From the IMG/VR virus record IMGVR_UViG_3300033407_000086, positions 1-31,286 of that record: DNA of 31,286 bases; one strand, written 5' to 3'. This DNA is from a virus. Its lineage: Duplodnaviria > Caudoviricetes. Shown here piece after piece: positions 2,862-31,286 of this stretch. The notes below the pieces were generated by a model. The model did no database searches, had not been told where the DNA came from, and was given only the letters and a program-made list of their open reading frames with translations. Positions within the stretch are counted from its first letter, which is position 1, and each line of letters opens with the position of its first letter. Position numbers and translations under genes: made by a program.

Positions 2862-3359
2862 TTATGATCTTTTGTATTGATGGTAGAGTTTTAAGAAATT
2901 CACTTCGGCCAACTGTGAAGACCAAACGTCCATCAAATGGCCGCGGTTGTTGATCATGTAGTTCTCCCATTCAAACCTTCCCTCATAGTCATCCAACGTT
3001 TTTACAGCTCTATGTAATGGGTACTGTATTTTGAACTTATCGGTTATGATGGCCATAAGCTTGTCTTCCATTTCTTTGTAACCGTTAAGCCTATGCTTCC
3101 AGGGCCGTGGTATGTCCAGTAGGTACGCCTCCGAAGCGTCATGGAGCAAACCTTCAAGGTTTAAGCCGCATTTTATGTTAGCACCCACCTTCCACGAATG
3201 CTGTGCCACTGAATAGAAGCATGGTAGATTACCACCGAACCTACATTGCAGCGACAGCGAATGAGCGATGTCTTCAATGCATATAAGTTCTGGGTCGGGG
3301 TCGAACGGGTCTATGTAGTGGCCGCTGAAAGTCCGGATGCAGTTAGGGTAACGGTTCAT
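2862..3359 (-). CDS. HD-domain phosphohydrolase (YfbR/YfdR-like 5'-deoxynucleotidase)
   Basis: 'IEDIAHSLSLQCRFGG', 'YSVAQHS', 'LLHDASEAYLLDIPRPWK'. Confidence 0.85.
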   Translation of the reverse strand: MNRYPNCIRTFSGHYIDPFDPDPELICIEDIAHSLSLQCRFGGNLPCFYSVAQHSWKVGANIKCGLNLEGLLHDASEAYLLDIPRPWKHRLNGYKEMEDKLMAIITDKFKIQYPLHRAVKTLDDYEGRFEWENYMINNRGHLMDVWSSQLAEVNFLKLYHQYKRS

Positions 3360-5828: not shown

Positions 5829-5975
5829 CATTTTAACCACAACGTAAATGTATATATGCTTTCAAAAGAACAAGCCGCTAAAAAACGGCTTGTCTCTAAT
5901 TATAATCCCATGAACATATCCGGCGCAATATTAGACCATAGCCGCTTTATTTGTATCAGTCGGACAGGTGGCGGA

Positions 5976-6200
5976 TGTCTGAAATGACACTGAAAAATAG
6001 CCTGGTGTCAATTTTGACACCAGGAAAAAAGCTTCCTGGTGTCAAAATTGACACGTAGATACAATAATACGTATTAATAACGGGCGCAAAGCGCCCTGTA
6101 TTTAGATTTTTGTTTGCTGTTCTTTTCGAGCGAGCTCTCAAGAAAGCAAACAAAAATGAAGCTTTGCTTCAGGCATCCCGTCCATGAGCTTCGCTCAAGA
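5976..6200. other. Probable replication origin (palindromic iterons plus hairpin cluster)
   Basis: Three TGTC-N6-GACA boxes (5976, 6006, 6040), perfect 22 bp inverted repeat 6005-6026/6033-6054, four GC-closed hairpins, AT-rich flank; between helicase and HTH initiator/primase genes. Confidence 0.6.
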
Positions 6201-6307
6201 GAGAATGAATCCTTGACCGATTGGATTTTTTTTTTCACGGCCTACAAACCTTAACCAGGTTAGGCACATATTATGAATAAAAATATTTGAAAATAAGTTC
6301 TGCAATA

Positions 6308-10301: not shown

Positions 10302-10733
10302 ATGAAACGACAATACAAAAGTATACCCACGGATGTTGACTTCTCTAAAATAGTAAAAGTCAATGACTTCACAATAGATGAAGACGACTGTTTTACAAAA
10401 ATGTACGACCCATCAACAAACGACTGTGCGTTGTGCGCCGACTGTGATTTATGTGCCATACTGTTTAATAAAACAGTAAGCGTAAGTCTTAAGAAAAAAT
10501 TCAATGATGAGTTTGGTCAAACAGCCGATACTTATGACTTTGAATCAGTCAATTCATCTAAGCTCGGTGAGAAGTTGTCAACCAACCCAGGCGTATATAC
10601 CAGAGCAGATATGTTCGATGTCGTTAAGAAACTGTCAAAGTGTGACTGTAATGATTTGGTAAACGACTGTGTAGAGTCCATACTTATGGAATATGGGCTT
10701 AAAGAACACAACGGCAAAATAGTACTGAAATGA
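10302..10733 (+). CDS. Hypothetical Cys-cluster protein
   Basis: 143 aa; 'DDCF...CALCADCDLC' possible metal site; ATGA-coupled to the polymerase. Confidence 0.7.
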   Translation: MKRQYKSIPTDVDFSKIVKVNDFTIDEDDCFTKMYDPSTNDCALCADCDLCAILFNKTVSVSLKKKFNDEFGQTADTYDFESVNSSKLGEKLSTNPGVYTRADMFDVVKKLSKCDCNDLVNDCVESILMEYGLKEHNGKIVLK

Positions 10734-13345
10734 TAGAGATCGGTAAATGCAATAAATCAATAATGTTCGTGTCTGACTACCCGGATGATATGGACTTTAC
10801 AACTGGTACTATAAACGTATACAGCACGTACAATACTTTGAACTCATTGGTCACAAAAGTGTTTACCGAATATTCATGGGATGATTTTTACCTTACTTTT
10901 ATATGTAGGTCACCTTTCCCAAGAAATACAAAGATAAACACCACATCGTTCAATCGGTTGGCGGTTGAGCATACCGATATGCTTATTGAGGATTTGGCTA
11001 TATATAAGCCTAAAGTTATAGTTGCTTTCGGAGCTCGTGCCGTTAAATACCTCATAGGTAAAACGTTAAAAGAATCAATCAATAAACTGAATAAAATAGA
11101 CCCTAAATTCGGCCATGAATGCTATGTCATTGCTACCGAATCGGTACGGTCTATGGATGATGACCTTGTGCAGGTTATTTTCAACGATATTCTTAAAGCG
11201 ATAGAACATGTGAGCACAGGTGATGACCCTTTTGAAAATGACGTGGTTGATTTTAAGTTGATAACAAACTTACAGGAATTTGAAGAATCCATAGATATGT
11301 GCGTCGAGGCTGGTGTGTTCTGCCATGACTATGAAACGGACGGCGGTGAGTATTTTGACCCAAGTTCAGTGGCAACAGTTTTGGGTTATTGCTTCCAACC
11401 AGGTTATGTTTACATACTGCCGTTAAATCATGAAAGCTCACCGTTCAACGACTATGATATTGCTTATTTATTTGGGATACTGAATGACCGTATATTTGGG
11501 AACATTGACGTGGTTAAGATCGCACACAATCTAAAGTATGAAATGCACTGGCACCGTAAATATGGTGTCACTGAGTTCCGTGGCATATTTGAAGATACTA
11601 TGCTAATGTCGCACTTATGCAACGAGAACGAACCGAACGGTCTTAAGGATATTGTGAAACAATTGTTTTCAAAGTACGATGGTTATGTACTTAAGCCTGG
11701 GAAGGACGAGACATGGGCCACATTGCCTATGGGCAGGCTGACAATTTACAATGCCATAGACTGCCATACTACAATGCTTGCTTATATCCATTATGAACAT
11801 AAGCTGCTGACCGACGACATTGATGAGTCCGGCAACAATAGGTTTATACAGTACGCTTATTATAGGAACCTTACCATGTTTGCTTTTAAGATGTTGCAGC
11901 GCATGGAATACCATGGCGCATATATAGACAGCGGCCATATAGAAAAGTCGATAGAAGTAGCAGAAAGACGCATACAAGAAAAATACAAGGACCTTATGGC
12001 AAACGGTACGGTCAATAGGTTCATAAAATACAAACGTGACGAGATTCTTCAGGCGACCATAGAAGAATATACTGAAAAAATGAACTCCCATGCAGCGAAC
12101 GGAAAAGATTACTTTGTGAACATGTACCGTACCAAGATACAAGATGTAAAAAACAACGGCATTGATTATGAGATAAATTTCAATTCACCCACACAGTTGT
12201 CCGATTTGTTGTTCATTAGCACTTATGGGTTCAATCTGCCAGTCAATCCAGCTACCAACAAACCAGAGACCAGTAAAGAATATTTGCACACATTAGATGA
12301 GCCTTTTGTTGAAGTGCTGCTTGCTTACCGCAGCATTGGAAAAATGGTGTCCACATATTATAAAGGCATATTGGACAAACTGGATAAGGACAGCAAACTC
12401 CATACAAGTTTTAACATGCATGGCACTGTTACTGGCAGGCTTTCATCGTCACGGCCAAATTTACAGAATATACCTACAAGGACAAAGCATGGTGACCCTG
12501 ATGTCATTTGGGCGATTAAAGAAGTTAAGAAATTTTTTGTTATACCAGAAGGTTATGTGGGTTTGCAATTTGACTTTTCACAAGCTGAATTACGGCTGAT
12601 CGCAAATTTTTCAGGTGATGAAGTAATGCAAGAAGTATATAACCAAGGCAAAGACATTCATGCAATGACCGGGGCGCAGATTGCCGGCATGGGTTATGAA
12701 GAATTTTTAACGTCATCCAACTATGCTGAAGTGAGGAACGATGCCAAGTCTGCAAATTTCGGTCTGGTATATGACATATCTCTTGACGGTTATATAAATT
12801 ACATAAAAGCGGCCACTGGTAAGACCATAACGATGGAAACGGCCAAAAAGCATTATGAAAGTTTGTTCACTACTTACCCAAGGCTTAGTGAATGGCATGT
12901 GAATTACAAATTCAAAGCAATGAAATATGGTTATGTTAGGACTTTGTTTGGACGTAAACGGAGGCTTGGAGATGTGTACTCATCGGTTTCTAAGTATCAG
13001 TCCAAAGCGTTGAGGAATTCCATCAACGCCCCTATCCAGGGCAGCGGCGGCGAATGGACTATTTTCGTGATGGCACTGCTTGACTGTGTGCTGCCACAAT
13101 CGGTTCTTTTCTTCAATACTGTTCACGATTCATTCTTTGCATATTGCCCTCCAGAGCTTGTGGCACATACATGTAAACTTGTTGACAAGTACGCAAGCAA
13201 GCCTCCGGTAGTCCGTTATTTCAAATGCGATGAAAGAAAACTCATTGTCCCAATGAAATTAGACCTTGAAACATCAACCAGATCATGGGGCGATATGGAA
13301 AAAGCAAACATAGACGGTATCATCGAGCAGGGAGTTTATAACTGA
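10730..13345 (+). CDS. polA: Family A DNA polymerase with N-terminal UDG-like domain and 3'-5' exonuclease
   Basis: Exo 'HDYET', 'HNLKYE', 'YNAID'; 'TVTGRLSSSRPNLQNIP'; motif A 'DFSQAELR'; motif B 'RNDAKSANFGLVY'; motif C 'VHDS'; N-terminal 'KPKVIVAFGARA'. Confidence 0.93.
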   Translation: MIEIGKCNKSIMFVSDYPDDMDFTTGTINVYSTYNTLNSLVTKVFTEYSWDDFYLTFICRSPFPRNTKINTTSFNRLAVEHTDMLIEDLAIYKPKVIVAFGARAVKYLIGKTLKESINKLNKIDPKFGHECYVIATESVRSMDDDLVQVIFNDILKAIEHVSTGDDPFENDVVDFKLITNLQEFEESIDMCVEAGVFCHDYETDGGEYFDPSSVATVLGYCFQPGYVYILPLNHESSPFNDYDIAYLFGILNDRIFGNIDVVKIAHNLKYEMHWHRKYGVTEFRGIFEDTMLMSHLCNENEPNGLKDIVKQLFSKYDGYVLKPGKDETWATLPMGRLTIYNAIDCHTTMLAYIHYEHKLLTDDIDESGNNRFIQYAYYRNLTMFAFKMLQRMEYHGAYIDSGHIEKSIEVAERRIQEKYKDLMANGTVNRFIKYKRDEILQATIEEYTEKMNSHAANGKDYFVNMYRTKIQDVKNNGIDYEINFNSPTQLSDLLFISTYGFNLPVNPATNKPETSKEYLHTLDEPFVEVLLAYRSIGKMVSTYYKGILDKLDKDSKLHTSFNMHGTVTGRLSSSRPNLQNIPTRTKHGDPDVIWAIKEVKKFFVIPEGYVGLQFDFSQAELRLIANFSGDEVMQEVYNQGKDIHAMTGAQIAGMGYEEFLTSSNYAEVRNDAKSANFGLVYDISLDGYINYIKAATGKTITMETAKKHYESLFTTYPRLSEWHVNYKFKAMKYGYVRTLFGRKRRLGDVYSSVSKYQSKALRNSINAPIQGSGGEWTIFVMALLDCVLPQSVLFFNTVHDSFFAYCPPELVAHTCKLVDKYASKPPVVRYFKCDERKLIVPMKLDLETSTRSWGDMEKANIDGIIEQGVYN

Positions 13346-14277: not shown

Positions 14278-14898
14278 ATGAAGACAAGTGACTTATTCGT
14301 ACGTGGCCGGCTGATACCAGATTCTTCTTTGATCGTTTTCGGTGACGACCTTGAACGGGTTAACGCTGAAAGATTATTGCGAACCAACGGTTTTTCATTT
14401 AGGTCTGAAAAAACAAAAGTCGCAATAATAAACGACTTTGTAAAATTGCATAAATATATCAAAAAGTTCTTTAACAAAGAACTGGTGTTCGGCATTTCGG
14501 TATCCAGTGAAAAAAGGAGTTTAAGACAGTTGAGGTTCTATTTCGGGGTTATCGTTCATACCATAATATCTTTTTATAAAGAGCACGGTGAAGACTACAC
14601 AAAAGAGCAAGTGCATCTGGACAACCTAATGAATATATGGGGATGGAAACCAGTTGAAGAATCGGTAAATGGGCGCCTTATCATAAGGCTTGACACTATG
14701 CCGTCAACCGGGGCGATGTCCAAGGAAACATTTTCACAATTTTTAAAAGCCATTGAAAAAGAATACGCATATAAAGGTCTTGATTGGTCATCCGTACTGG
14801 ACGATAAAGACGGAAACCAAGTCAGGGAAGGCACAGGCATACCTTATGTTGATTCTGGTGATGGCACATTAAACCAGTACTATGAACGGTTTAAATGA
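14278..14898 (+). CDS. NinB/Orf-like recombination mediator
   Basis: 'KRSLRQLRFYFGVI' and 'STGAMSKETFSQFLKAI' resemble the two conserved NinB-family blocks. Confidence 0.5.
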   Translation: MKTSDLFVRGRLIPDSSLIVFGDDLERVNAERLLRTNGFSFRSEKTKVAIINDFVKLHKYIKKFFNKELVFGISVSSEKRSLRQLRFYFGVIVHTIISFYKEHGEDYTKEQVHLDNLMNIWGWKPVEESVNGRLIIRLDTMPSTGAMSKETFSQFLKAIEKEYAYKGLDWSSVLDDKDGNQVREGTGIPYVDSGDGTLNQYYERFK

Positions 14899-15397
14899 AT
14901 TCCCACGGAAAATACCAAATAACATAAAGTCTTATTTGGTGGCAGATGATACGTGCATCCATGTCATTAGCACTCATTACATGACAGACGGCAAACGTAA
15001 TGTGCTTTATGTATTAGAGGATGCTTATCATGATTATTCTATAAAGCATTTATATTTCAATGATTTCTGCAACGAATACGCTATGGTAATACCGAATGAT
15101 ATAATCCTAAAAGAACAGACTTTGCTTGAACATGCTTATGATATACTCCATAAAAGGTCTGAGGAAAAAGAAAGGCAGTATGGTCCTATGACCGAAGGTA
15201 TGGAGAAAGCAGCCAAAATAGCGGCGTTGTTGAGTGGTAAAGAATTTGATGCAAGAATGATGTATATCGCTATGGTCTCTTTGAAATTATCTCGTGAATC
15301 GTATAGCAAAAAATATGATAACATATTGGACACCATTGTGTACATGGCCGCTATGGTTGATGCAGACATTGAGTCCTATACCAAAAGTAAAAAATAA
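14882..15397 (+). CDS. DUF6378-like helical protein (nucleotide-metabolism-associated)
   Basis: C-terminal 'TLLEHAYDILHKRSEEKERQYGP...MVSLKLSRE...DNILDTIVY'. Confidence 0.6.
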   Translation: MNGLNEFPRKIPNNIKSYLVADDTCIHVISTHYMTDGKRNVLYVLEDAYHDYSIKHLYFNDFCNEYAMVIPNDIILKEQTLLEHAYDILHKRSEEKERQYGPMTEGMEKAAKIAALLSGKEFDARMMYIAMVSLKLSRESYSKKYDNILDTIVYMAAMVDADIESYTKSKK

Positions 15398-16590
15398 TGA
15401 GCACAACTTGGGGAACGATCATACCGCTGATCGGTGGGATGGCCATAGGCAACAAAGCAGCATTTGGTTCAGATGCTAAGTGGGCGGTCGGGTACAATGG
15501 TTTTGAACGCAACAATGAGCACTTTAGGGCATACTTTAAAGATGTACCGTTCCATGATTTTGTTGACGACGGCAATATAACGGACTTAAGCCATTTGGAG
15601 CCCGTGGATGTGGTCAGTACCGTATGCCCGTGTGCAGGGTTGTCAATGCTTAACCGAGCCAACAACAAAGACAGTGACCGTTCACGTGGTTGCAACGCTT
15701 TGCAGAACGGTTACATGTACTTGACCGCTGAAGCTGTATTGCAGCATTTAACGCCAAGAGTTTTCTTTGGTGAAAACGCACCAGGTCTTTTCACAAATGC
15801 TGGGTATGATGTAAGAGTCAACCTGTACGAAATAGCCAAAAAGTACGGTTATAGTTTAAGCTTTGTAAAAACCAATACAATGCTTCATGGGATACCGCAG
15901 CACCGCATGCGCACTTTCTATTTTTTCTGGGATTCTGACACAGCGCCGATAATGAACTATTACCGTGAAAAGTCACCCAGGCTGGTTGATTATCTGGCAG
16001 AAGTACCAAGCGATGCCTCATGTCAGTACCACATGACTCCAAACCTTAGCGACCATATAACTTTTCGTTACATAAAAATGAAAGAGGGCAACAATTGGCG
16101 GAAAGCGCTGCTGAACAACGGCAGAAGTGTGTGGGGTTATATAGAAGCACATAACTTATTTGAGGACTTTATAAAATTCTGCACCAAAGATGGTAGTAAG
16201 CAAGCACTCAAATATATCAAAAGGGCTGTGTACATTGCCGATAAGATAAAGATAGACCCTGTGACTGGCAGGTCAAAAGGCGGCTACTGGGACGACAGCA
16301 TCATTTATTATGGTGAAGAGGAAATAAACGGTGTAATAGTAAAGAATGTGACTTATGGGATGCACCCAACCGAAGAAAGGTCGTTCACCATACGTGAGCT
16401 CTTATGGATGATGGGGCACCCACATGATTTTGAAATGAAGAATAAACACATTGGGACCATATTCCAGAATGTGCCTTCATGCACCGCTGAATCATGGTCA
16501 CGTGAGGTTGTCAAATACCTAAATGACGAACTGCCATTTTCTAAAAACGATTATCTTAAACAAGATAATATAAAAAGAAGGATAGTATGA
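15397..16590 (+). CDS. C5 cytosine DNA methyltransferase-like protein with atypical motif I
   Basis: Catalytic 'CPCAGLS', motif VI 'GENAPGL', motif VIII 'HGIPQHRMRTF', motif IX 'RSFTIRE', motif X 'QNVP'; motif I is 'IPLIGG'. Confidence 0.8.
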   Translation: MSTTWGTIIPLIGGMAIGNKAAFGSDAKWAVGYNGFERNNEHFRAYFKDVPFHDFVDDGNITDLSHLEPVDVVSTVCPCAGLSMLNRANNKDSDRSRGCNALQNGYMYLTAEAVLQHLTPRVFFGENAPGLFTNAGYDVRVNLYEIAKKYGYSLSFVKTNTMLHGIPQHRMRTFYFFWDSDTAPIMNYYREKSPRLVDYLAEVPSDASCQYHMTPNLSDHITFRYIKMKEGNNWRKALLNNGRSVWGYIEAHNLFEDFIKFCTKDGSKQALKYIKRAVYIADKIKIDPVTGRSKGGYWDDSIIYYGEEEINGVIVKNVTYGMHPTEERSFTIRELLWMMGHPHDFEMKNKHIGTIFQNVPSCTAESWSREVVKYLNDELPFSKNDYLKQDNIKRRIV

Positions 16591-17861
16591 ACGTAGTCAT
16601 TGGAAAAATAGGGAAGTCGTTGCTGTTCGACCCTAAGTCATGGGGTTTGGTCGGCGGTGATTCAGCACCCGCTATACTTTATACAAACTTGGCCAACATG
16701 AACCCGCAAGATAATTTTTACATTATCGGCAAATCTGATTTTGACAGGTTGACCGACAGTTATAAAGAACGTCTTTTCCCAAACGGTAATGTGCATTATT
16801 GTATGCCTAATGACGATGAGTACAAAGACCCGGATTTCAGCTATATGCATGCGGTTGACTGGTTGGACGAGAACGAGGTTGACATTGATACAGGCATTGT
16901 CTTTAATGGCATGGTTGGCGGGACAAACATACCCAATAAAATAGTTAAGCAGAAAGACCCATCTGTTTTTACCAAACCTTACTTTATGATGCGGGCTTAT
17001 TCTGCCAACGTCATACATACGTTGAATGATCTTGATGTACCTTATGCATTAATATCGGAAGACCCACGTTACATTGATGTCAATGGCCGTGACTTGTTCA
17101 ACAGACCTAAGATAATACTTTCACAATGCAACGGTTCATCAACTAAGCATCATATACTTTCTTATGAACGTCAACTTGAAACCGACGTTCATGAAGTACC
17201 AGTGGTCTATGCTGAAACAGAAAAGATATTTTTGATGGGTGAAAACCCTATTGATGTGGCCGAGATAGAAAAGAAGTACGCAGTCAACGCTTTTATGAAC
17301 GGTCACGGCATGTCAAAAGGCGAGTCCAGGTATGATTTTGTAAAAGAGTATGTACTGGATTCTTTTGAGTATGCTAAGGTTTACGGCAATTGGCCGAAAG
17401 AATTATATGAGACAGGTAGGTTCGTAAAAAAGCGGATGGGCGATGCTATGGACATTGTGATGGGGACCAAGTACACACCGGTCGTTTCCATCAAGCCAGG
17501 GTTCGTTACTTGCAAACCTTTCGAGATGCTGAACTGGGGCATACTGCCTTTCATGCATGATTCTTACGATTCTAAAGACTTGGTGGGGTTCGACCCGTAT
17601 CTTATCATAAGTTCAGCCGACGAGTTCAAAGAAAAAGTCAACATGTTGGAATCCCGTCCAAACATTAGGATTGATTTCCTTAAAGCGATTTATGACCAGT
17701 ACATGACCGATGAATATTTCAACGGGACCAGACTGAACAACAAGTACATGAGTATACTTTACGAACTGGTTGGTCAGGCTTATCAGCCAGTCCAGCAAAA
17801 CGAATTTATAAAAATATCAAACTTTCAATCCAATGAACGCTTCCAAAACAATAGTAAGTGA
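16587..17861 (+). CDS. Putative GT-B glycosyltransferase (DNA-modifying candidate)
   Basis: 424 aa; N-terminal 'GLVGGD' loop, 'EDPR', C-terminal 'KVYGNW' and 'TCKPFEMLNWGILPF' typical of GT-B nucleotide-sugar binding; operon context. Confidence 0.55.
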   Translation: MNVVIGKIGKSLLFDPKSWGLVGGDSAPAILYTNLANMNPQDNFYIIGKSDFDRLTDSYKERLFPNGNVHYCMPNDDEYKDPDFSYMHAVDWLDENEVDIDTGIVFNGMVGGTNIPNKIVKQKDPSVFTKPYFMMRAYSANVIHTLNDLDVPYALISEDPRYIDVNGRDLFNRPKIILSQCNGSSTKHHILSYERQLETDVHEVPVVYAETEKIFLMGENPIDVAEIEKKYAVNAFMNGHGMSKGESRYDFVKEYVLDSFEYAKVYGNWPKELYETGRFVKKRMGDAMDIVMGTKYTPVVSIKPGFVTCKPFEMLNWGILPFMHDSYDSKDLVGFDPYLIISSADEFKEKVNMLESRPNIRIDFLKAIYDQYMTDEYFNGTRLNNKYMSILYELVGQAYQPVQQNEFIKISNFQSNERFQNNSK

Positions 17862-18816
17862 CGTTGACGGTATATTGACGGACGGTAAGTTTGCATATAC
17901 CACTACGGGTAAAATCCTTAAGATGTTCGGTGCACATGACAGTGACGGCATTAAGCTTCTTAAATCAATCGGGTACGATATAAAGTTCATTACGGCTGAC
18001 CATCGTGGGTACCCTATATCGGTCAAGAGGCTGGAGCATTTAGGTTGTACATTGGAACTTGTGGAAGACGGCAAACGGCTGGAGTACATTAAAGAAAATT
18101 ACGGTAAAGACATTATATACTTAGGAGACGGTTACTATGATGCGGCCATACTGGAGTATGTTGATGTTGGGGTAACTTTGTTGAACGGGTTGCCTATATG
18201 CAAAAGCAACGCTGATGTGGTTTTGCAGACGACCGGGGGAAACGGTGCATTTATGTATTTGTACGATTATCTTACCAGCAAAGCTCATACGAACATTAAG
18301 CGTGTTATAAGTGAAATAAACAAGTGTGTTGGTCATTTTGATACGATCAACGGCCATACGTTGCCGCATTTCCTGGAAGTTATCGAACGTGCTCATAACA
18401 TCTTTCTGATAGGTGCAGGCCGCATGGGTTACGCTTGCCGTGGTTTTGCCATGCGGTTGTCGCATCTTGGTTATAAGTCGTTCTTTATAAGCGATTCAAA
18501 CACACCACGGGTAACACCTAACGACTTGGTTATTTTCGGCACGTCGTCTGGCAATACTCCCAGTATTAGAATGATGCTTGATATTGCCGTATCAGCCGAA
18601 GCAATGACAGCTTGTATAACGGCCAACTCAAATGGTTATGTAAGTAGGCATGCGGGCATCACATTGTACATGGGGGAGATACAGACAGGACAGTTCATGA
18701 AGACGGTCTATGAACAAAGCATTCAGGTAGTGTTCGATTATATAGCTTCGTTATTGATAGAAGAACGTGGCCTTGATACGGGCATTCTTGGACTTAACCA
18801 TTCAATATTTGAATAA
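17833..18816 (+). CDS. Fusion: KdsC-like HAD phosphatase + SIS sugar-phosphate isomerase (HxlB/PHI-like)
   Basis: 'SDVDGILTDG', 'YLGDGYYD', 'GGNGA'; then 'IFLIGAGRMGYACRGFAMRLSHLG', 'TSSGNT', 'NHSIFE'. Confidence 0.85.
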   Translation: MNASKTIVSDVDGILTDGKFAYTTTGKILKMFGAHDSDGIKLLKSIGYDIKFITADHRGYPISVKRLEHLGCTLELVEDGKRLEYIKENYGKDIIYLGDGYYDAAILEYVDVGVTLLNGLPICKSNADVVLQTTGGNGAFMYLYDYLTSKAHTNIKRVISEINKCVGHFDTINGHTLPHFLEVIERAHNIFLIGAGRMGYACRGFAMRLSHLGYKSFFISDSNTPRVTPNDLVIFGTSSGNTPSIRMMLDIAVSAEAMTACITANSNGYVSRHAGITLYMGEIQTGQFMKTVYEQSIQVVFDYIASLLIEERGLDTGILGLNHSIFE

Positions 18817-19427
18817 TGAAAACGATCAACAGCGCATCTTTGGTATGCAGCGACTTACTGGACTTAAGGTCATCGTTAAGAGCGATAAACAACACATCTT
18901 ATATAGACTCGATCCATATTGACATAATGGACGGTTTATATGTGGACAGGATCGGCATCATGCCGGAAGTATTCAGCCAGATAAATGAGTTTACCAACAA
19001 AAGCACTGATGTGCACTTCATGGTAGATGACCCTGTTAAATTCATGGCTTTATGCCAGGGAGCCGATATGTTTTGGGTGCATAGTGATAAGCTTGATGAA
19101 AATACGTATAAAATAGCCAAAAGTTATGCAAAGAAATGTGGTGTGGTGTTCAGTCCGGGCGATGATATGGAGGCGTGGCTGTCAGACGGGTTGTATGACT
19201 CAATAATACTGATGGCCATGCGTCCAGGTGACTTATCATCTGATATGGACAGCCGTATCTACGATATGATCAAGATTGCCCGTAAGAATTGCAGTGGGGT
19301 AGTGGCGGTTGATGGTAAAGTAAGCCGTAATACTTATGTTGATTTTATGGTCAACGGTGCTAACTTTTTTGTACTTGGCACATCTTCAATCTATCAAGAT
19401 GGTAGGATGTTAAAAACATTTAAATGA
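18816..19427 (+). CDS. Ribulose-phosphate 3-epimerase family protein (AlsE-like)
   Basis: 'SLVCSDLL', 'HIDIMDG', 'DVHFMV', 'LMAMRPG', 'VAVDG', 'VLGTS'. Confidence 0.85.
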   Translation: MKTINSASLVCSDLLDLRSSLRAINNTSYIDSIHIDIMDGLYVDRIGIMPEVFSQINEFTNKSTDVHFMVDDPVKFMALCQGADMFWVHSDKLDENTYKIAKSYAKKCGVVFSPGDDMEAWLSDGLYDSIILMAMRPGDLSSDMDSRIYDMIKIARKNCSGVVAVDGKVSRNTYVDFMVNGANFFVLGTSSIYQDGRMLKTFK

Positions 19428-20920
19428 AAGTAATAATCACAACAGCCGGGAGAGGTTCACGTATATCGGGCAAAACCGACATACTGAACAAAGCATTGAT
19501 AAAAGTAGGTGACAAAGCGATGATCAATCATATCATTGATTCTTATCCAGCGACCACCAAGTTTGTGATCGTTTTAGGTTATAAAGGTGATCAAGTAATG
19601 GATTATATATTGTTATGTTACCCTGACCATAATATTGAATTTGTGCGAGTGGATTTGACAAAAAAACAATCAATGCTTTATTCATTAGTGACGGCCATAA
19701 AAGAAAGCGCTGACCCATACAGTGCATTTATATACAATGCTTGTGATATGTTCGTACCAGATGCACATACTTTATGGGGTCACTATACAGACACTTTAAT
19801 GTTCGGGTCAACGCTGATGGACAACGTGATGTATGACTGTGTCGACTCTAATGGTAAATTACAGTACAAAGGGCATAAAGGCTACCCTTATTTAGGTGTA
19901 TGCTATGTGGTCAAAACCGCTACTTTTGTAGAAAATGCTGAAATTATACTTGAACTGTGCGGCGAATCAGAACGGAACGACTTTTCAGTTTTCAAAAAAA
20001 GTAACACAGATATTAGGCATATTAAAAAAGACTTATGGTACGACATCGGCAATATACATGCTTGGCGTGAAAGCGACGCTAAAATGGGAAGGACTTTTTT
20101 TACATCTGAAAAGATAGACCGTGAGACTTATTTTATCGAGGGCCATGTTATAAAATTTTTAAAGAATGAGGAAGATATAGATGAATTGTACCAACGGCGG
20201 TCACAGTTCAACTATACTGACATAGTGATGGGGCAGTTCATAAAAATGGACTTTGTACATGGCGTATCGGCTGATTTGAAATGCGATAGGCAAGTAATGA
20301 ACTTTATTATAAACCATCTTAAAAATAAGGTCCAAGTAGATTATAAGTTCAATCATTTCTACACAAGAAAGACACTGGACAGGGTAGGTAAATTTTTGAC
20401 CGACAACAACGACTACAATCTGATAAATGGTGAACGTATCAAAGAACCGATACAAGATATGATAAATGCCTGTGGCCGGGCGTTGGGACTGACGGCCATA
20501 ATAGGCGCACATGGTGATTTTGTATTGTCCAACGTTATAGTCAAGGGCGATGGCATTCATTATATCGACATTAGGACCGATTTTGGCGGCAATGATTACG
20601 GTGCACTGGAATATGAATGGGCTAAACTGTCTCATTCATTGCTGTTCAATCATAAGAAAATATCTTTGGGTGAATATAACTTTAATGAACTTGATGATGA
20701 ATGTTATGTGGATATTACCGTAAGCTATAATAATCTGCTATTTCTTGAAATGGTCAGGGAATCTATACCAGAAAACCAAAGAACGACGGTTGAGATACTT
20801 CATGCATTTGTCTGGTTGTCAATGTCGCCGCTGCACCCATGTGTGGAAGGTAAGATATTGTACGCATTAGGCAAATTAAAACTATACCAATGTTACAATA
20901 TTTTAAATGCAGAGACGTAA
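19424..20920 (+). CDS. Fusion: sugar-phosphate nucleotidyltransferase + APH/choline-kinase-like phosphotransferase
   Basis: 'TTAGRGSRI...NKAL', 'LGYKG', 'WYDIGN'; C-terminal 'HGDFVLSNVI', 'YIDIR', 'YEWAKL', 'LSMSPLH'. Confidence 0.85.
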   Translation: MKVIITTAGRGSRISGKTDILNKALIKVGDKAMINHIIDSYPATTKFVIVLGYKGDQVMDYILLCYPDHNIEFVRVDLTKKQSMLYSLVTAIKESADPYSAFIYNACDMFVPDAHTLWGHYTDTLMFGSTLMDNVMYDCVDSNGKLQYKGHKGYPYLGVCYVVKTATFVENAEIILELCGESERNDFSVFKKSNTDIRHIKKDLWYDIGNIHAWRESDAKMGRTFFTSEKIDRETYFIEGHVIKFLKNEEDIDELYQRRSQFNYTDIVMGQFIKMDFVHGVSADLKCDRQVMNFIINHLKNKVQVDYKFNHFYTRKTLDRVGKFLTDNNDYNLINGERIKEPIQDMINACGRALGLTAIIGAHGDFVLSNVIVKGDGIHYIDIRTDFGGNDYGALEYEWAKLSHSLLFNHKKISLGEYNFNELDDECYVDITVSYNNLLFLEMVRESIPENQRTTVEILHAFVWLSMSPLHPCVEGKILYALGKLKLYQCYNILNAET

Positions 20921-21390
20921 AATCTCCAGAACGCCGGAAAGGCGATGCTGGGTTTGATTTTTTTGTACCCAAAGATTTCAACGCTGAAATGCTGCCGACT
21001 GAACAAGACCGCCGCTGGGCGTTTAATCTTGACGGTAAGTATGAACTTAATTCTGGCTGTGATTTACTGATACCGTCCGGCCTTCATGTAAGGCTCCCGG
21101 TTGACCATGTGCTTATGTTGGCTGACAAATCAGGAGTGGCTACACGTAAGAAGTTGATGGTGGCCGCTAAGATCATAGACGAAAGCTACCAAGGAGAGAT
21201 ACATTACCACATGGTCAATTTCTCGAACGGTATCATTCTTATAAGCCCTGGTGAGAAAATAATCCAGGGACTGCTTATACGTTGCAACTATATGGGATCG
21301 GCTGAGATAAGTAGTCTTGAAAAACTTTATAAAAACCATTCAAAAAGCCATCGTGGCAGTGGTGGGTTCGGTTCGACTGGTTCATATTAA
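20890..21390 (+). CDS. dut: Trimeric dUTPase-family protein with variant motifs
   Basis: 'DAGFDF', 'ADKSG', 'KIIDESYQGEI', 'KIIQG', 'RGSGGFGSTG'. Confidence 0.85.
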   Translation: MLQYFKCRDVKSPERRKGDAGFDFFVPKDFNAEMLPTEQDRRWAFNLDGKYELNSGCDLLIPSGLHVRLPVDHVLMLADKSGVATRKKLMVAAKIIDESYQGEIHYHMVNFSNGIILISPGEKIIQGLLIRCNYMGSAEISSLEKLYKNHSKSHRGSGGFGSTGSY

Positions 21391-21497
21391 GTTCAAAAAA
21401 AATATTTTACTTTTAAGAAAAAAGTTCCTAAAAAATTTGGAAGTCTTAAGAACTTGGTGTAATTTTGTTTCATCATTAACGATCAAACTAAATCAAT
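21384..21497 (+). repeat. Promoter cassette repeat, copy 1 (114 bp)
   Basis: Identical to 30825-30938; TTTG (21436-21439), 20 bp spacer, TAATTTTG (21460-21467). Confidence 0.92.
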
Positions 21498-21498
21498 C

Positions 21499-21726
21499 AT
21501 TGAAAAACTTAATAAAAGAACTGTATTAGATTTAATGAGGAATGGCCATATCTTAAGAAATATTACAATTAAAGACGAAATATGGGATTGTATAGCACCT
21601 GACGGTACTCCTACAAGATTAAGTAAATCCACTGGTCGCGCTGTAAGACAAGACCCAGATGTAAAACGTATGGGCGGCACTGTTTGTAGTACATATTTCA
21701 ATATACCGACAGTAGATGTACATTGA
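21499..21726 (+). CDS. Small hypothetical protein (ATT at the expected start; first ATG at 21535)
   Basis: Frame open from 21499, the same offset from the repeat as the ATG after copy 3. Confidence 0.45.
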   Translation: MEKLNKRTVLDLMRNGHILRNITIKDEIWDCIAPDGTPTRLSKSTGRAVRQDPDVKRMGGTVCSTYFNIPTVDVH

Positions 21727-21852
21727 AATACACAAGAACTTGGCATGGTTATTTCAACCAGATAAACAAACTGAATCATGATACTTAAAGAAAGTAAAGA
21801 ACTAATGGGTTGAAATCAAATCTCTTAAAGAATTTATAAAATACTTTAATTT

Positions 21853-22041
21853 ATGAGAACTTTACAATCAGTGGCCATAACCAGGGCTTATAACATATTT
21901 AAAAGAAAAGGCACCAATCAGTCGGCTTTTGAATTTGCTTGGCGGTCAATCGAAATAAATTTCCCATCACTGTTCACGTCAACTGTTATAGAAACAGCTT
22001 TGATAAAATATAACAAAACCCACCACAATGAATGTATTTGA
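21853..22041 (+). CDS. Small hypothetical protein
   Basis: 62 aa, AT-rich leader, overlaps the next start. Confidence 0.55.
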   Translation: MRTLQSVAITRAYNIFKRKGTNQSAFEFAWRSIEINFPSLFTSTVIETALIKYNKTHHNECI

Positions 22042-22705
22042 AACTCCTACAAACGCTTTTGAATGGGTGTATGATAAGATAATGCACGGTGGTATCAGCC
22101 ACCGGGGTACAAAAGCTATCATAGGATACTCAATGGAAATATTGCGCCCACAGCATAAAGTTATAACCACCGAGTGGCGTAAATTCAATGAGGACTATGC
22201 CAAAAAAGAATGGGAGTGGTATTTGTCAGGCAACACATGCGCCGACGCTATGGCGGAAATGGCAAAGATATGGAAGCAGTGCCAAGATTCTGAAGGTAAC
22301 GTGAACTCCAATTACGGTCATCATTGGTTTAAGCCGTTGTATGGCGGCGTAAACCAATATGACTGGCTTTTGGCTGAACTCAAAAACGATAAGGATTCAC
22401 GTAGAGCGATATTAAGCCACTATGACTATAACGAACTTCATAAATATTCCAAAGATACTCCGTGCAACCTGGCACTCCAGTTCGTCATAGTCGGCCATAA
22501 ACTTGAAGTCATTATATTCTGTAGGTCGCAGGACTTGGTGTACGGTTTCTGCAATGACCAGTATATTTGGGCATGCCTACAGGCTAAGATCATAAAAGAC
22601 CTTTGGCCTACTTATCAACTGATACCGGGTAGGATGGTTTACCAATATGGTCATATTCATATTTACCCAAGGCATTACAATCTTAGCGGTGAGTTCAAAA
22701 ACTAA
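22028..22705 (+). CDS. Thymidylate-synthase-family enzyme, dCMP hydroxymethylase-like
   Basis: 'EWEWY', 'NSNYG', 'DSRRA', catalytic 'TPCN', 'RSQDLVYGFCND', 'HIY'. Confidence 0.8.
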   Translation: MNVFETPTNAFEWVYDKIMHGGISHRGTKAIIGYSMEILRPQHKVITTEWRKFNEDYAKKEWEWYLSGNTCADAMAEMAKIWKQCQDSEGNVNSNYGHHWFKPLYGGVNQYDWLLAELKNDKDSRRAILSHYDYNELHKYSKDTPCNLALQFVIVGHKLEVIIFCRSQDLVYGFCNDQYIWACLQAKIIKDLWPTYQLIPGRMVYQYGHIHIYPRHYNLSGEFKN

Positions 22706-23287: not shown

Positions 23288-23725
23288 ATGAACAGACAAT
23301 TCTTCACAATAATGACAAGACAGCAACTAAAAGACACAGTGTTCCTAAATGTTGCCAAACAGATAGGGACGCTTAGCAGATGCAAACGGCTTAAAGTGGG
23401 TGCGGTATTGGTTCGTGACAACCGTATCATTTCGATAGGTTACAACGGTACGCCGACGGGGCTTGACAATGAATGTGAATGCAATGATACTACGAAAGAG
23501 AGTGTTGTGCATGCCGAAATGAACGCCATAATGTTTGCGGCCAAAAACGGCATAGGGACCGATAAGTGTACATTGTACGTAACTGACGCTCCATGTTATG
23601 GGTGCACAAGGTCTATAATACAAGCAGGGATAGTCCGTGTGGTCTATAGCCGTGAATACCATAGCGACGGCCTGCCGTTGCTGAACCTGGTTAAAATACC
23701 TTATACGTTATGGGAGAAAGAATAA
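23288..23725 (+). CDS. dCMP deaminase
   Basis: 'KVGAVL', 'GYNG', 'HAEMNA', 'PCYGC'. Confidence 0.92.
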   Translation: MNRQFFTIMTRQQLKDTVFLNVAKQIGTLSRCKRLKVGAVLVRDNRIISIGYNGTPTGLDNECECNDTTKESVVHAEMNAIMFAAKNGIGTDKCTLYVTDAPCYGCTRSIIQAGIVRVVYSREYHSDGLPLLNLVKIPYTLWEKE

Positions 23726-24908: not shown

Positions 24909-24913
24909 TTATG

Positions 24914-25009
24914 TATTAAGTTCAAAAATATATTTTACTTTTAAGAAAAAAGTTGTTAAAAAATTTGGAAGTCTTAAGAACTTAATGTAATTTTGTTTCA
25001 TCAATTAAC
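24914..25009 (+). repeat. Promoter cassette repeat, copy 2 (diverged)
   Basis: Matches copies 1 and 3 over ~96 bp with a few changes; TTTG-N20-TAATTTTG retained. Confidence 0.9.
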
Positions 25010-25063
25010 CGCAACGGCGGGTTCATTAAACAAAAATTTTTTAATCAACAAAATCTTTTAATC

Positions 25064-29381: not shown

Positions 29382-30831
29382 ACTGCCAGCGGTACAACCG
29401 AACAAGCATGTTGAAAAACGGCTGATAAGCGACCCTGATCTTTCATTGCTTTTGGACAGTCAGTATGAAGTGTTCAAATCATTGAACATTTTTATGAAAA
29501 GCGGTGAACGGTTTATGCGTGTCAGGGGTAAAGCTGGTGTAGGTAAGACTTTCTTAATATCAATGTTCATTGAGTATTATCTGTTCAATAACCCCCATAC
29601 ACCGGTATGCATATGTGCGCCGACTAATAAAGCGGTACGTGTAAGCAATACTATGAGCCAATATGAGAACGGCAGTATCAGCTACAAGACCAACCATTCA
29701 GTGCTTGGCATACGGATGAAACGTGAGCACGGTAAAGAAGTGTTTATCCAGTCGGTAAAACCAACGGTGAACAACTTTAAAATGATAGGCTCAGATGAGG
29801 CCAGTATGCTTCATCCTTACATAACCGAACTGATGGACGGCATGTGTGCGAACAAAGTCATATTCATTGGCGACCCTAACCAATTGCCCCCAGTGATTGA
29901 CGACAGTGAAAAAGAGTACTGGTTGGTCAAAGGCTACCCGGTGGACATAAGCCCTATATGGTCAATGCCCATGAATGAAGTCACAATGGATACCATAGTG
30001 CGCCAAGCGCAGGGCAACCCAATAATAACCCTGGCAAACTTATGCACTGAAAAACCTTATGTACCGTTGCCGGACTTCAATGCGGCAAGCAATGTGATAG
30101 ACGGTAAGCTGGTTGGCGTGTTCCAGTTCAACAAACGATCAAGTGATGACTATGAAATGTTCCTTGAACTTATACTTAATTATTTCTTAAGCGACAACTA
30201 CCGACAGGACTTTGATTTCTGCCGGGTGGTATGCTTTACCAACGAGGAAGTTAACAGGTATAATAAGTTCATTAGGAAGCATTATTTCAAAGGCATAGAG
30301 GAGAAAATAGCTGTGGGTGAACGGCTGATCGTATCAGACAGCATAAAGGACCTTGAGTACGAACCACAATATACAGGCGATGAGCATTTACTGTTCAATG
30401 TCAACGATGAGCTTGAAGTCATATCTTATACCATAGAATCATTGGACATTGGCAGGTTACGGCTGAACTATTACGAAGCAAAAGTAATTGACTTAAACAA
30501 GCCTTATAGTCCACCAAAGACCATCAACATAATACACGAGTCGAGTGAGGACATTTTAAAAAAGACTTTGAACACAATGGCAGCAATGGCCAACAACGCC
30601 AAAGGCATACAGAAGTCAAGGTACTGGGAAGCGTTCTACCAGTTAAAAGATTTGTTCGCTGTTGTCATGTATGGTTATGCTTCCACCATACATAAGTCAC
30701 AGGGCTCTACAATCAAGTACGTGTTTTACGATAAGACAGACGAACACTATGTAAAAGACAGCTCGCTGTTGCGGCGGCTGCAATATACAGCGGTTACCAG
30801 GGCAAGCAGTGTGCTTATGATATTATATTAA
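29368..30831 (+). CDS. SF1B helicase (Dda/RecD-like)
   Basis: 'GKAGVGKT', 'APTNKA', 'DEASM', 'GDPNQLPP', 'RQ', 'TIHKSQGST', 'YTAVTRAS'. Confidence 0.92.
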   Translation: MDLFELPAVQPNKHVEKRLISDPDLSLLLDSQYEVFKSLNIFMKSGERFMRVRGKAGVGKTFLISMFIEYYLFNNPHTPVCICAPTNKAVRVSNTMSQYENGSISYKTNHSVLGIRMKREHGKEVFIQSVKPTVNNFKMIGSDEASMLHPYITELMDGMCANKVIFIGDPNQLPPVIDDSEKEYWLVKGYPVDISPIWSMPMNEVTMDTIVRQAQGNPIITLANLCTEKPYVPLPDFNAASNVIDGKLVGVFQFNKRSSDDYEMFLELILNYFLSDNYRQDFDFCRVVCFTNEEVNRYNKFIRKHYFKGIEEKIAVGERLIVSDSIKDLEYEPQYTGDEHLLFNVNDELEVISYTIESLDIGRLRLNYYEAKVIDLNKPYSPPKTINIIHESSEDILKKTLNTMAAMANNAKGIQKSRYWEAFYQLKDLFAVVMYGYASTIHKSQGSTIKYVFYDKTDEHYVKDSSLLRRLQYTAVTRASSVLMILY

Positions 30832-30938
30832 GTTCAAAAAAAATATTTTACTTTTAAGAAAAAAGTTCCTAAAAAATTTGGAAGTCTTAAGAACTTGGTG
30901 TAATTTTGTTTCATCATTAACGATCAAACTAAATCAAT
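30825..30938 (+). repeat. Promoter cassette repeat, copy 3 (114 bp)
   Basis: Identical to 21384-21497. Confidence 0.92.
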
Positions 30939-30939
30939 T

Positions 30940-31286
30940 ATGACAACTTTACAAACCGTAGAACTTGAAAAACTTCAAAAATTAGTAGCTGAACGTATAA
31001 AATACTCTAAGATTTATAGTAGGAGTATTTTAGAGAAAGCAACGACACATACGTCTTGGGATTCAACGTTTACTTACCCATCTTTAATGGAGTTTACAGT
31101 AGAAGCTCGCTGGTATAAAATACTTGAAGAATTGTTGAGTTACCTACATACGCCAAATGTAAGTAAGGGTATTATCATGAGTTCTTTGATGGATAATTTC
31201 AATATTAAGAAAATTACCGTTGAAAATTATTCAGGCATATTTGCCGCTGCTGAATCATCGACTTATAAAGAGATTGTCAAACGTAA
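30940..31286 (+). CDS. Hypothetical protein, 3'-truncated by the window edge
   Basis: ATG 30940 (MTTLQTVELEKLQKLVAERIK...), frame open to the end; absent from the ORF track. Confidence 0.7.
   Translation, partial: MTTLQTVELEKLQKLVAERIKYSKIYSRSILEKATTHTSWDSTFTYPSLMEFTVEARWYKILEELLSYLHTPNVSKGIIMSSLMDNFNIKKITVENYSGIFAAAESSTYKEIVKR

Follow-up and report, generated by a model that had tools for sequence, protein, structure and literature searches.

A phage locus predicted to glycosylate hydroxymethylcytosine with a phage-made sugar, and its partner with a rebuilt C5-methyltransferase pocket

The gene block, the acceptor base and the glycosyltransferase

The 31,286-bp virus record analysed here (the window), a fragment of a genome, holds a block of seven open reading frames (ORFs; 14882-21390) and, beyond it, a homologue of thymidylate synthase (TS). 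The block was singled out in an original prediction, made from the letters alone, as a self-contained system that builds a nucleoside diphosphate (NDP)-sugar and transfers it to modified cytosine. All seven ORFs lie on the + strand at the positions it gave, with junctions that overlap by 1, 4, 29, 1, 4 and 31 bp in that order; an upstream NinB-like gene overlaps the first of them by 17 bp. They encode a DUF6378 protein (14882..15397; Pfam 2e-6), a protein with the fold of C5-methyltransferases (MTases; 15397..16590; DNA_methylase 6e-17), a predicted glycosyltransferase (GT; 16587..17861), a HAD-SIS fusion (17833..18816; SIS 3e-13 plus HAD), a ketose-phosphate 3-epimerase (18816..19427; Ribul_P_3_epim 3e-23), a nucleotidyltransferase (NTase)-kinase (19424..20920; NTP_transf_3 8e-9) and a trimeric dUTPase-like protein (20890..21390; dUTPase 2e-14, with PHROG and NCBIfam support). 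These matches uphold the DUF6378, epimerase and dUTPase labels of the prediction. The TS gene (22028..22705, +; Thymidylat_synt 2e-24) starts 637 bp past the end of the dUTPase gene, where about 640 bp had been announced, and is followed by a dCMP deaminase gene (23288..23725, +; Pfam and PHROG). As also foreseen, the block stands among replication genes: DnaB, primase, helicase, PolA and SSB precede it in Pfam and PHROG scans, and its GC content, overall and at third codon positions, is close to that of the PolA gene.

The TS homologue carries D143, C146, D169 and D177 (ThyA numbering). Its best match in the PDB is T4 gp42 (4e-24, against 5e-14 for ThyA), in keeping with the dCMP-type enzyme first proposed. 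Residue rules that separate synthases of 5-hydroxymethyl-dCMP (hmdCMP) from those of 5-hydroxy-dCMP (5hodCMP) are given in passages of PMC13326640 (N177D and L143D; D169 kept versus D169N). By its D143/D169/D177 signature, the protein is predicted to be a T4 gp42-like dCMP hydroxymethylase making hmdCMP. A 5hodCMP synthase of the RB69 type (D169N) is ruled out, as the window protein and every one of the 40 TS compared retain D169. The predicted acceptor is hydroxymethylcytosine (hmC) as in T4, and the 5-hydroxycytosine (5hoC) of RB69 falls away. In a non-redundant set of 40 TS, drawn from GT-linked loci and from cyanophage S-TIM5, 39 read D/D/D at 143/169/177, the exception being S-TIM5 (C143/H147/D177). 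Two large phages (L023:6042-6629 and L037:6089-6676; loci are cited by L numbers) have a second, degenerate TS-fold gene right after the hydroxymethylase. The cultured B. fragilis phage BF503P2 (L271:8609-14672) has two TS homologues and a carbamoyltransferase-like gene and is a candidate for carbamoyl-hmC DNA.

Several genes may act on nucleotide pools. A dCMP deaminase occurs in 34 of the 79 GT-selected loci described below, often adjoining the TS; according to passages of 10.1101/2024.12.05.627091, deaminases adjoining dCMP-type TS can be selective for 5-methylcytosine (5mC) or 5hmC. The C-terminal domain of the DUF6378 protein is 48% identical to a DUF6378 gene placed directly after the TS in L005, and the DUF6378 genes of L151 and L157 belong to the same subfamily; comparisons with T6 gp56, and with the gene that T4-like relatives carry at the corresponding position, gave no significant match. 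A role as a nucleotide-pool pyrophosphatase, putatively a dCTPase, is possible. L151:3603-12132 and L157 display another hypermodification design, which combines an hmdCMP synthase, DUF6378, myo-inositol-1-P synthase, a gene with the HMUDK helical domain and the MTase-like gene. In the window, an HD-type dNMP phosphatase (2862-3359, - strand; phrog_318 1e-48) could help to clear unmodified nucleotides.

Pfam, PHROG and NCBIfam all gave no match for the protein encoded at 16587-17861; its homologues number 19 at 28-45% identity, the window protein included. The original prediction called it GT-B-like and proposed a structural comparison, and its model (pLDDT 90) indeed has a GT-B fold, with T4 BGT at ranks 1-3 in Foldseek. 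In VIA, the match to T4 BGT reaches Z 23.4 (root-mean-square deviation (rmsd) 3.4, 309 aligned), ahead of the next non-BGT structure (19.8), the HY126 GT (17.7) and AGT (17.0). On the strength of this model, the enzyme likely transfers a sugar onto hmC in DNA.

A survey of neighbourhoods, another check proposed at the outset, covered 79 GT-selected viral loci, 33 of them with long flanks (at least 7 kb upstream and at least 5 kb downstream); the set is partly redundant, since it includes many near-identical marine contigs that are not independent. A D143/D169/D177 TS accompanies the GT relative in 54/79 loci (29/33 with long flanks), and an MTase-like gene is present in 70/79 (27/33). The linkage of GT, TS and MTase is beyond chance. 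Many T4-like relatives carry the block flanked by DNA polymerase on one side and uvsX/gp41 on the other, the place of gp42 and a glucosyltransferase in T6. L005 holds TS, DUF6378, deaminase, GT, HAD, PHI, epimerase, NTase-kinase and MTase-like genes. Five cultured-phage records carry the GT family, XG4 and four Enterococcus records. Phages XG4, 9183 and Planchet combine it with TS, HAD and NTase-kinase genes; in the Enterococcus phages 9183 and Planchet (L001 / L004), the TS is D/D/D and the kinase is also present. ORF050 of phage 9183 was considered as a member of the GT family and set aside, the comparison not being significant. Passages of the 9183 paper and the open-access literature searched yielded nothing on the DNA chemistry of this phage.

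The methyltransferase-fold protein

The MTase-fold gene is the real puzzle of the locus. Its model (pLDDT 90.5) aligns with M.HaeIII (Z 27.6, rmsd 2.8, 278 aligned), M.HhaI (Z 26) and the phage enzyme CmoX (8yf3; Z 25.1), and at E 1e-30 its family counts at least 945 sequences; the Atlas clusters nearest to it are viral. The catalytic residues C79, E126, N127, R170 and R172 (motifs IV, VI and VIII) are kept in 120/120 best homologues, a set found by the family profile and thus partly circular. Within the same set, FxG of motif I is replaced by [IV]PL in 120/120 (in full [IV]PL[IV]GG; IPL in the window), Glu of motif II by S/T in 120/120 (G in the window), and Gly of motif X by Q in 119/120, so that GN reads QN. 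The same replacements occur in 48 MTase-like sequences found via the GT or tblastn, whereas FxG is kept in 9/9 distinct control C5-MTases (eight bacterial, and Fnu1). In M.HhaI, motifs I, II and X contact S-adenosylmethionine (SAM). The canonical SAM motifs are absent from the window protein, and the C5-MTase label of the prediction stands for fold and catalytic motifs and fails for the SAM motifs. Compared with M.HhaI, M.HaeIII and CmoX (passages of PMC12783734), the protein shares the fold, the catalytic Cys and the ENx and RxR motifs, and differs in motif I (IPL), motif II (Glu to G/S), motif X (QN), the missing SPPC and the linkage to an hmdCMP synthase. Because the replaced residues are themselves invariant, they suggest that the pocket holds a new ligand and is not simply empty. 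No description of the family was found in the open-access literature searched, and a prior description is possible.

Among 80 MTase-selected loci (29 with long flanks), a TS lies in the flank of 34, of which 33 are D/D/D and one is truncated. The GT partner varies: it is a TAGT in L133 and an AGT in L152, and in L138 no GT stands between TS and MTase. The family tracks hmdCMP synthases, not one particular GT. Two cultured phages carry members of the same degenerate family. Bacillus phage G has the distant gp301 together with an AGT and a D/D/D TS. Cyanophage S-TIM5 has a methylase-like gene and one TS, of the C143 type, and differs from the window in having no GT of the window family nearby. 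There are also loci that lack the association. No TS is nearby in 14 of the 29 long-flank loci, and a whole-record search of 23 MTase-carrying records gave a D/D/D TS in five, ThyA alone in one and none in 17, these last being Fnu1 and 16 fragments with a completeness of no more than 38%. Conversely, phage 9183 has TS and GT and no MTase-like gene.

Two readings of the protein compete. One, which is credible without reaching even chances, sees a working C5 alkyltransferase that uses SAM or an analogue to mark unsubstituted cytosines, and would so complement partial glycosyl-hmC with a second layer. The whole fold and catalytic set are present, and the avoidance of restriction sites discussed below suggests incomplete substitution. 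In S-TIM5, the sole PF00145 gene belongs to the family, and the DNA of this phage is reportedly methylated at C after purines, a finding credited to Sabehi in 2012, which a plain methylase would explain simply. Bisulfite does not tell 5mC from hmC. A change of cofactor is possible in phage C5-MTases, as CmoX uses carboxy-SAM (Cx-SAM; passages of PMC12783734). This reading has to accommodate three SAM-contact features replaced throughout the family, and the window has neither an SPPC motif (it reads VCPC) nor a CmoA-like match among the ORFs scanned. It also leaves unexplained why almost all linked TS are hydroxymethylases; were every C replaced by hmC, the phage DNA would offer a methylase nothing to act on.

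The other reading, a more speculative one, turns the protein into a dedicated SAM-independent editor of hmC that would remove the hydroxymethyl group at selected positions, releasing it as formaldehyde, or replace its hydroxyl with another nucleophile. It would account for catalytic residues that stay invariant while the SAM-contact features change family-wide and controls keep FxG, for the D/D/D state of 33 of 34 linked TS beside a variable GT, and for phage G. C5-MTases can indeed release formaldehyde from hmC without SAM (dehydroxymethylation; passages of PMC11347137). It is opposed by the S-TIM5 case, by the new ligand that the invariant replacements suggest, by the loci and records without TS and by phage 9183; nor was an RC/YC sequence-context signature common to the family found, and codon-position and dinucleotide tests revealed no shared pattern. 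No TET/5mYOX dioxygenase, the companion of the MTase in post-replicative systems built from MTase, TET and GT, was found among 30 ORFs (Pfam) or 36 ORFs (PHROGs) of this genome fragment. Collectively, the S-TIM5 case, the invariant replaced residues, the CmoX precedent and the loci without a nearby TS make a true alkyltransferase slightly more likely than a SAM-free hmC editor.

The sugar-nucleotide genes

Four enzymes are predicted to make an NDP-sugar of the phage's own. The HAD-SIS fusion joins a KdsC-type HAD phosphatase (residues 6-151) to a PHI/HxlB-like SIS isomerase (residues 156-324), with NCBIfam matches to TIGR01670 (2e-18) and TIGR03127 (3e-29), each below cut-off, and PDB matches to YckF, MJ1247 and KdsC. 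The SIS half matches HxlB/PHI models and structures; KdsD is absent among the matches at 1e-5. The epimerase is AlsE-like and predicted to be of the hexulose-6-P type. It scores 98.6 bits on NF007266 (AlsE; equivalog cut-off 271) against 86.6 on RPE, and its best PDB match is AlsE (3ct7, 4e-19), with the GTS loop aligned without gaps. Loop 8 carries the residue pair GT in 25/25 cassette epimerases, as in AlsE; Chan et al. are said to have drawn from this loop, in 2008, a rule that distinguishes hexulose from pentulose substrates. The bifunctional NTase-kinase has an AfhE-like architecture. Its NTase half is secured by Pfam; the APH/choline-kinase-like sugar kinase half, also part of the predicted label, has no Pfam match in the window protein and is assigned from its HGDF..N..D motif and from PF01636 in homologues. 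The UDP-arabinose route of RB69, DLP3 and HY126 (AfhE/AfhF), described in passages of PMC13326640, likewise has a SIS isomerase, a HAD protein and a fused kinase-nucleotidyltransferase. A phage-encoded NDP-sugar route, as the original prediction had it, is thus retained at the level of predicted enzymes, with AfhE/AfhF as a closer parallel than its ADP-heptose analogy: the GmhA/HldE/GmhB route follows the same logic, but the families in the window differ (PHI-like SIS, APH-type kinase motif, KdsC-like HAD).

Taken together, an AlsE-like epimerase with the GT loop and a PHI-like SIS point to a route from fructose-6-P to allulose-6-P, then to allose- or altrose-6-P and an NDP-hexose. A rare hexose of the allose/altrose type is the leading candidate for the sugar, though a tentative one. 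A pentose donor, formed from ribulose-5-P via xylulose-5-P and xylose- or lyxose-5-P and giving pentosyl-hmC, is rather unlikely. It fits the Pfam family of the epimerase, the epimerases of L005 and L023, which fit RPE models better than AlsE ones, and the pentose made by known phage routes of such design; yet the window epimerase is nearer AlsE, the GT loop is present in 25/25, the SIS is from a hexulose-6-P family, and RPE is normally supplied by hosts.

The same four activities occur in bacteria. A profile scan with the NTase-kinase returned 29 genome-collection loci, of which 19 hold all four sugar genes. TS, GT and MTase occur together in just one, the phage contig L037, and the GT family is absent from the 28 non-phage loci. 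The cassette of PHI, AlsE-like, NTase-kinase and KdsC-like genes is conserved in L222-L250, in surface-polysaccharide loci of the candidate phyla radiation (CPR), Bacteroidota, Bdellovibrionota and others; no description of it was found in the open-access literature searched. Its neighbours in L222, L235 and L237 are genes for Wzm/Wzt, Wzz, Wza-type polysaccharide export, flippases and GTs, whereas in the window HAD and SIS are fused and would feed a DNA GT. The sugar genes, though encoded by the phage, form a cassette that it shares with bacterial surface-glycan loci. Among phages, the complete set is also found in L005, with no SIS nearby in L023, L031 and L037. In a quick NTase-kinase tree (47/104 sequences), L005 falls among bacterial cassettes; the window forms a long branch (3.1) that cannot be placed, and for this reason no donor of the sugar genes is claimed. 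In many viral loci (such as L167:9533-10525, L179 and L205), the NTase-kinase is followed by a gene of 325-330 aa without Pfam match, which we take to resemble the GatZ tagatose-6-P epimerase, and then by a HAD gene. This is perhaps a second rare-sugar cassette.

Proposed pathway, armour and host

Glycosylation of hmC-DNA with a phage-made NDP-sugar is the reading we favour with some confidence. The TS, by its signature, would convert dCMP to hmdCMP; kinases would carry this to the triphosphate for incorporation by PolA, while DUF6378 and the dUTPase may trim nucleotide pools. The AlsE-like epimerase would turn fructose-6-P into allulose-6-P and the PHI-like SIS would form an aldohexose-6-P; the kinase half would then phosphorylate at position 1, the KdsC-like HAD would dephosphorylate at position 6 and the NTase half would activate the sugar, an order taken by analogy with AfhE/AfhF. 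The GT-B enzyme, on account of its fold, would move the sugar onto hmC. The MTase-fold partner would flip cytosines and activate C5 via the catalytic Cys; in the reading we prefer, it would act on hmC and not on C.

This pathway logic is already known in phages (RB69, DLP3, HY126); the component enzymes differ. With the glucosyl-hmC system of T4/T6 (gp42, gp56, gp1, BGT/AGT), the window has in common the dCMP hydroxymethylase signature and best PDB match, a BGT-like GT-B and a nearby dCMP deaminase. Unlike T4/T6, it has NDP-sugar genes of its own, an MTase-fold partner, a PolA replicon and strong restriction-site avoidance, and no recognisable gp56 or gp1. Its own sugar genes argue for a donor other than host UDP-glucose. 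Like the arabinosyl-5hoC phages RB69, DLP3 and HY126, it combines SIS, bifunctional NTase-kinase, HAD, GT-B and dCMP-type TS. Unlike them, its TS keeps D169 (N169 in the 5-hydroxylase), its SIS is PHI-like and not API, its HAD is KdsC-like, an AlsE-like epimerase is added, and its GT is nearer BGT than the HY126 GT. The locus is T4-like for the base, RB69/HY126-like for the donor and a member of neither group.

Several observations weigh against the glycosyl-hmC pathway. The sugar-gene HMM scores in the window all lie under curated cut-offs. Within 8 kb, 55/60 viral NTase-kinase relatives have no TS or GT and 5/60 have both; it is thus GT and TS that tie the system to DNA, and sugar genes by themselves are no sign of DNA modification. 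Neither a dCTPase nor a dNMP kinase came up in Pfam and other scans of the 31-kb fragment. The nearest relatives of the TS are those of Bacteroides phages (B. fragilis BF503P group, 41%) with, by inspection, a carbamoyltransferase-looking neighbour; given this affinity and its distance from the block, its history may differ from that of the other genes. Finally, the count of 6-bp palindromes that contain C is 0.67 times the Markov expectation over the window (231/342) and 0.68 times within the block; T6 stands at 0.94 and 14 further comparator loci at 0.81-1.11. B40-8 and FCL-2, phages without annotated hmC genes, avoid such palindromes similarly. It is improbable, all the same, that the four sugar genes and the GT build a surface or virion glycan while TS and deaminase serve nucleotide supply alone, a reading in line with the export genes beside the bacterial cassette, the many viral NTase-kinases lacking TS and GT and the strong site avoidance, but opposed by the GT: a DNA enzyme leads its structural matches by over 3 Z units, and the GT family keeps company with hmdCMP synthase and replication genes and is missing from the non-phage loci.

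As regards armour, the palindrome avoidance, which is as in Bacteroidota phages without annotated hmC genes, indicates that restriction still shapes this genome. The anti-restriction role first proposed is weakened: full armour is doubtful, protection being partial, recent or ineffective against the enzymes of this host, and hmC substitution is probably incomplete. Palindromes in which every C follows a pyrimidine stand at 24/79, against 122/152 for C after a purine (permutation p 0.0003 in a post hoc test). This signature was considered as context protection of the S-TIM5 type and rejected as a trait of Bacteroidota phages, because the depletion recurs in BF503P2 (21/39), B40-8 (48/125) and FCL-2 (40/87) and not in S-TIM5.

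A Bacteroidota host, as first suggested, appears likely from expression signals and from the nearest TS genes, which are those of B. fragilis phages. A Shine-Dalgarno-like word precedes only 1/29 start positions checked (two of these starts are misplaced). The word TAnnTTTG, the Bacteroidota -7 promoter consensus, occurs 49 times in the window against 32.8 expected, a count reached in 0/100 shuffles; a scan of the window for sigma-70 promoters and terminators stayed at chance level. An intergenic 117-bp repeat with this motif (21384..21500, +) is the likely promoter of the TS unit and is followed by two ORFs of 62-63 aa without family matches; further copies lie at 30825-30941 (99% identity) and 24912-25028 (71%). 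The repeat is probably a phage promoter module and, since it stands between block and TS, the latter is probably transcribed in a separate unit. A search for close relatives of the phage gave 0 loci in the TS scan, and the PolA scan returned solely the window's own contig (L274). Elsewhere in the window, an AT-rich intergenic stretch (5900-6250) with a 20-bp direct repeat (6001-6020, 6035-6054) lies upstream of a replication-initiator-like helix-turn-helix gene and is a possible origin. PolA (10730-13345) has an N-terminal domain like uracil-DNA glycosylase (PF03167 9e-4, below cut-off), as in SP-10-type polymerases.

The locus predicts a new glycosyl-hmC base, and through it an uncharacterised bacterial rare-sugar cassette becomes testable via a simple DNA read-out. 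That the C5-MTase fold has become a SAM-free hmC editor across a widespread phage family of at least 945 proteins, here beside a BGT-like enzyme adding a rare hexose (allose or altrose) to DNA, is a bold proposal that we put forward as doubtful. Since cultured carriers exist (XG4, phage G and S-TIM5, with 9183 as a phage without the MTase-like gene), the question is testable now. If the proposal held, the family would provide a natural, dedicated enzyme for direct C-C cleavage of hmC, so far known as an MTase side reaction. It would be the first DNA dehydroxymethylase, or hmC-conjugating enzyme, to serve naturally in such a dedicated role. Such an activity would bear on how phages evade modification-dependent restriction and could serve as a tool for 5hmC sequencing.

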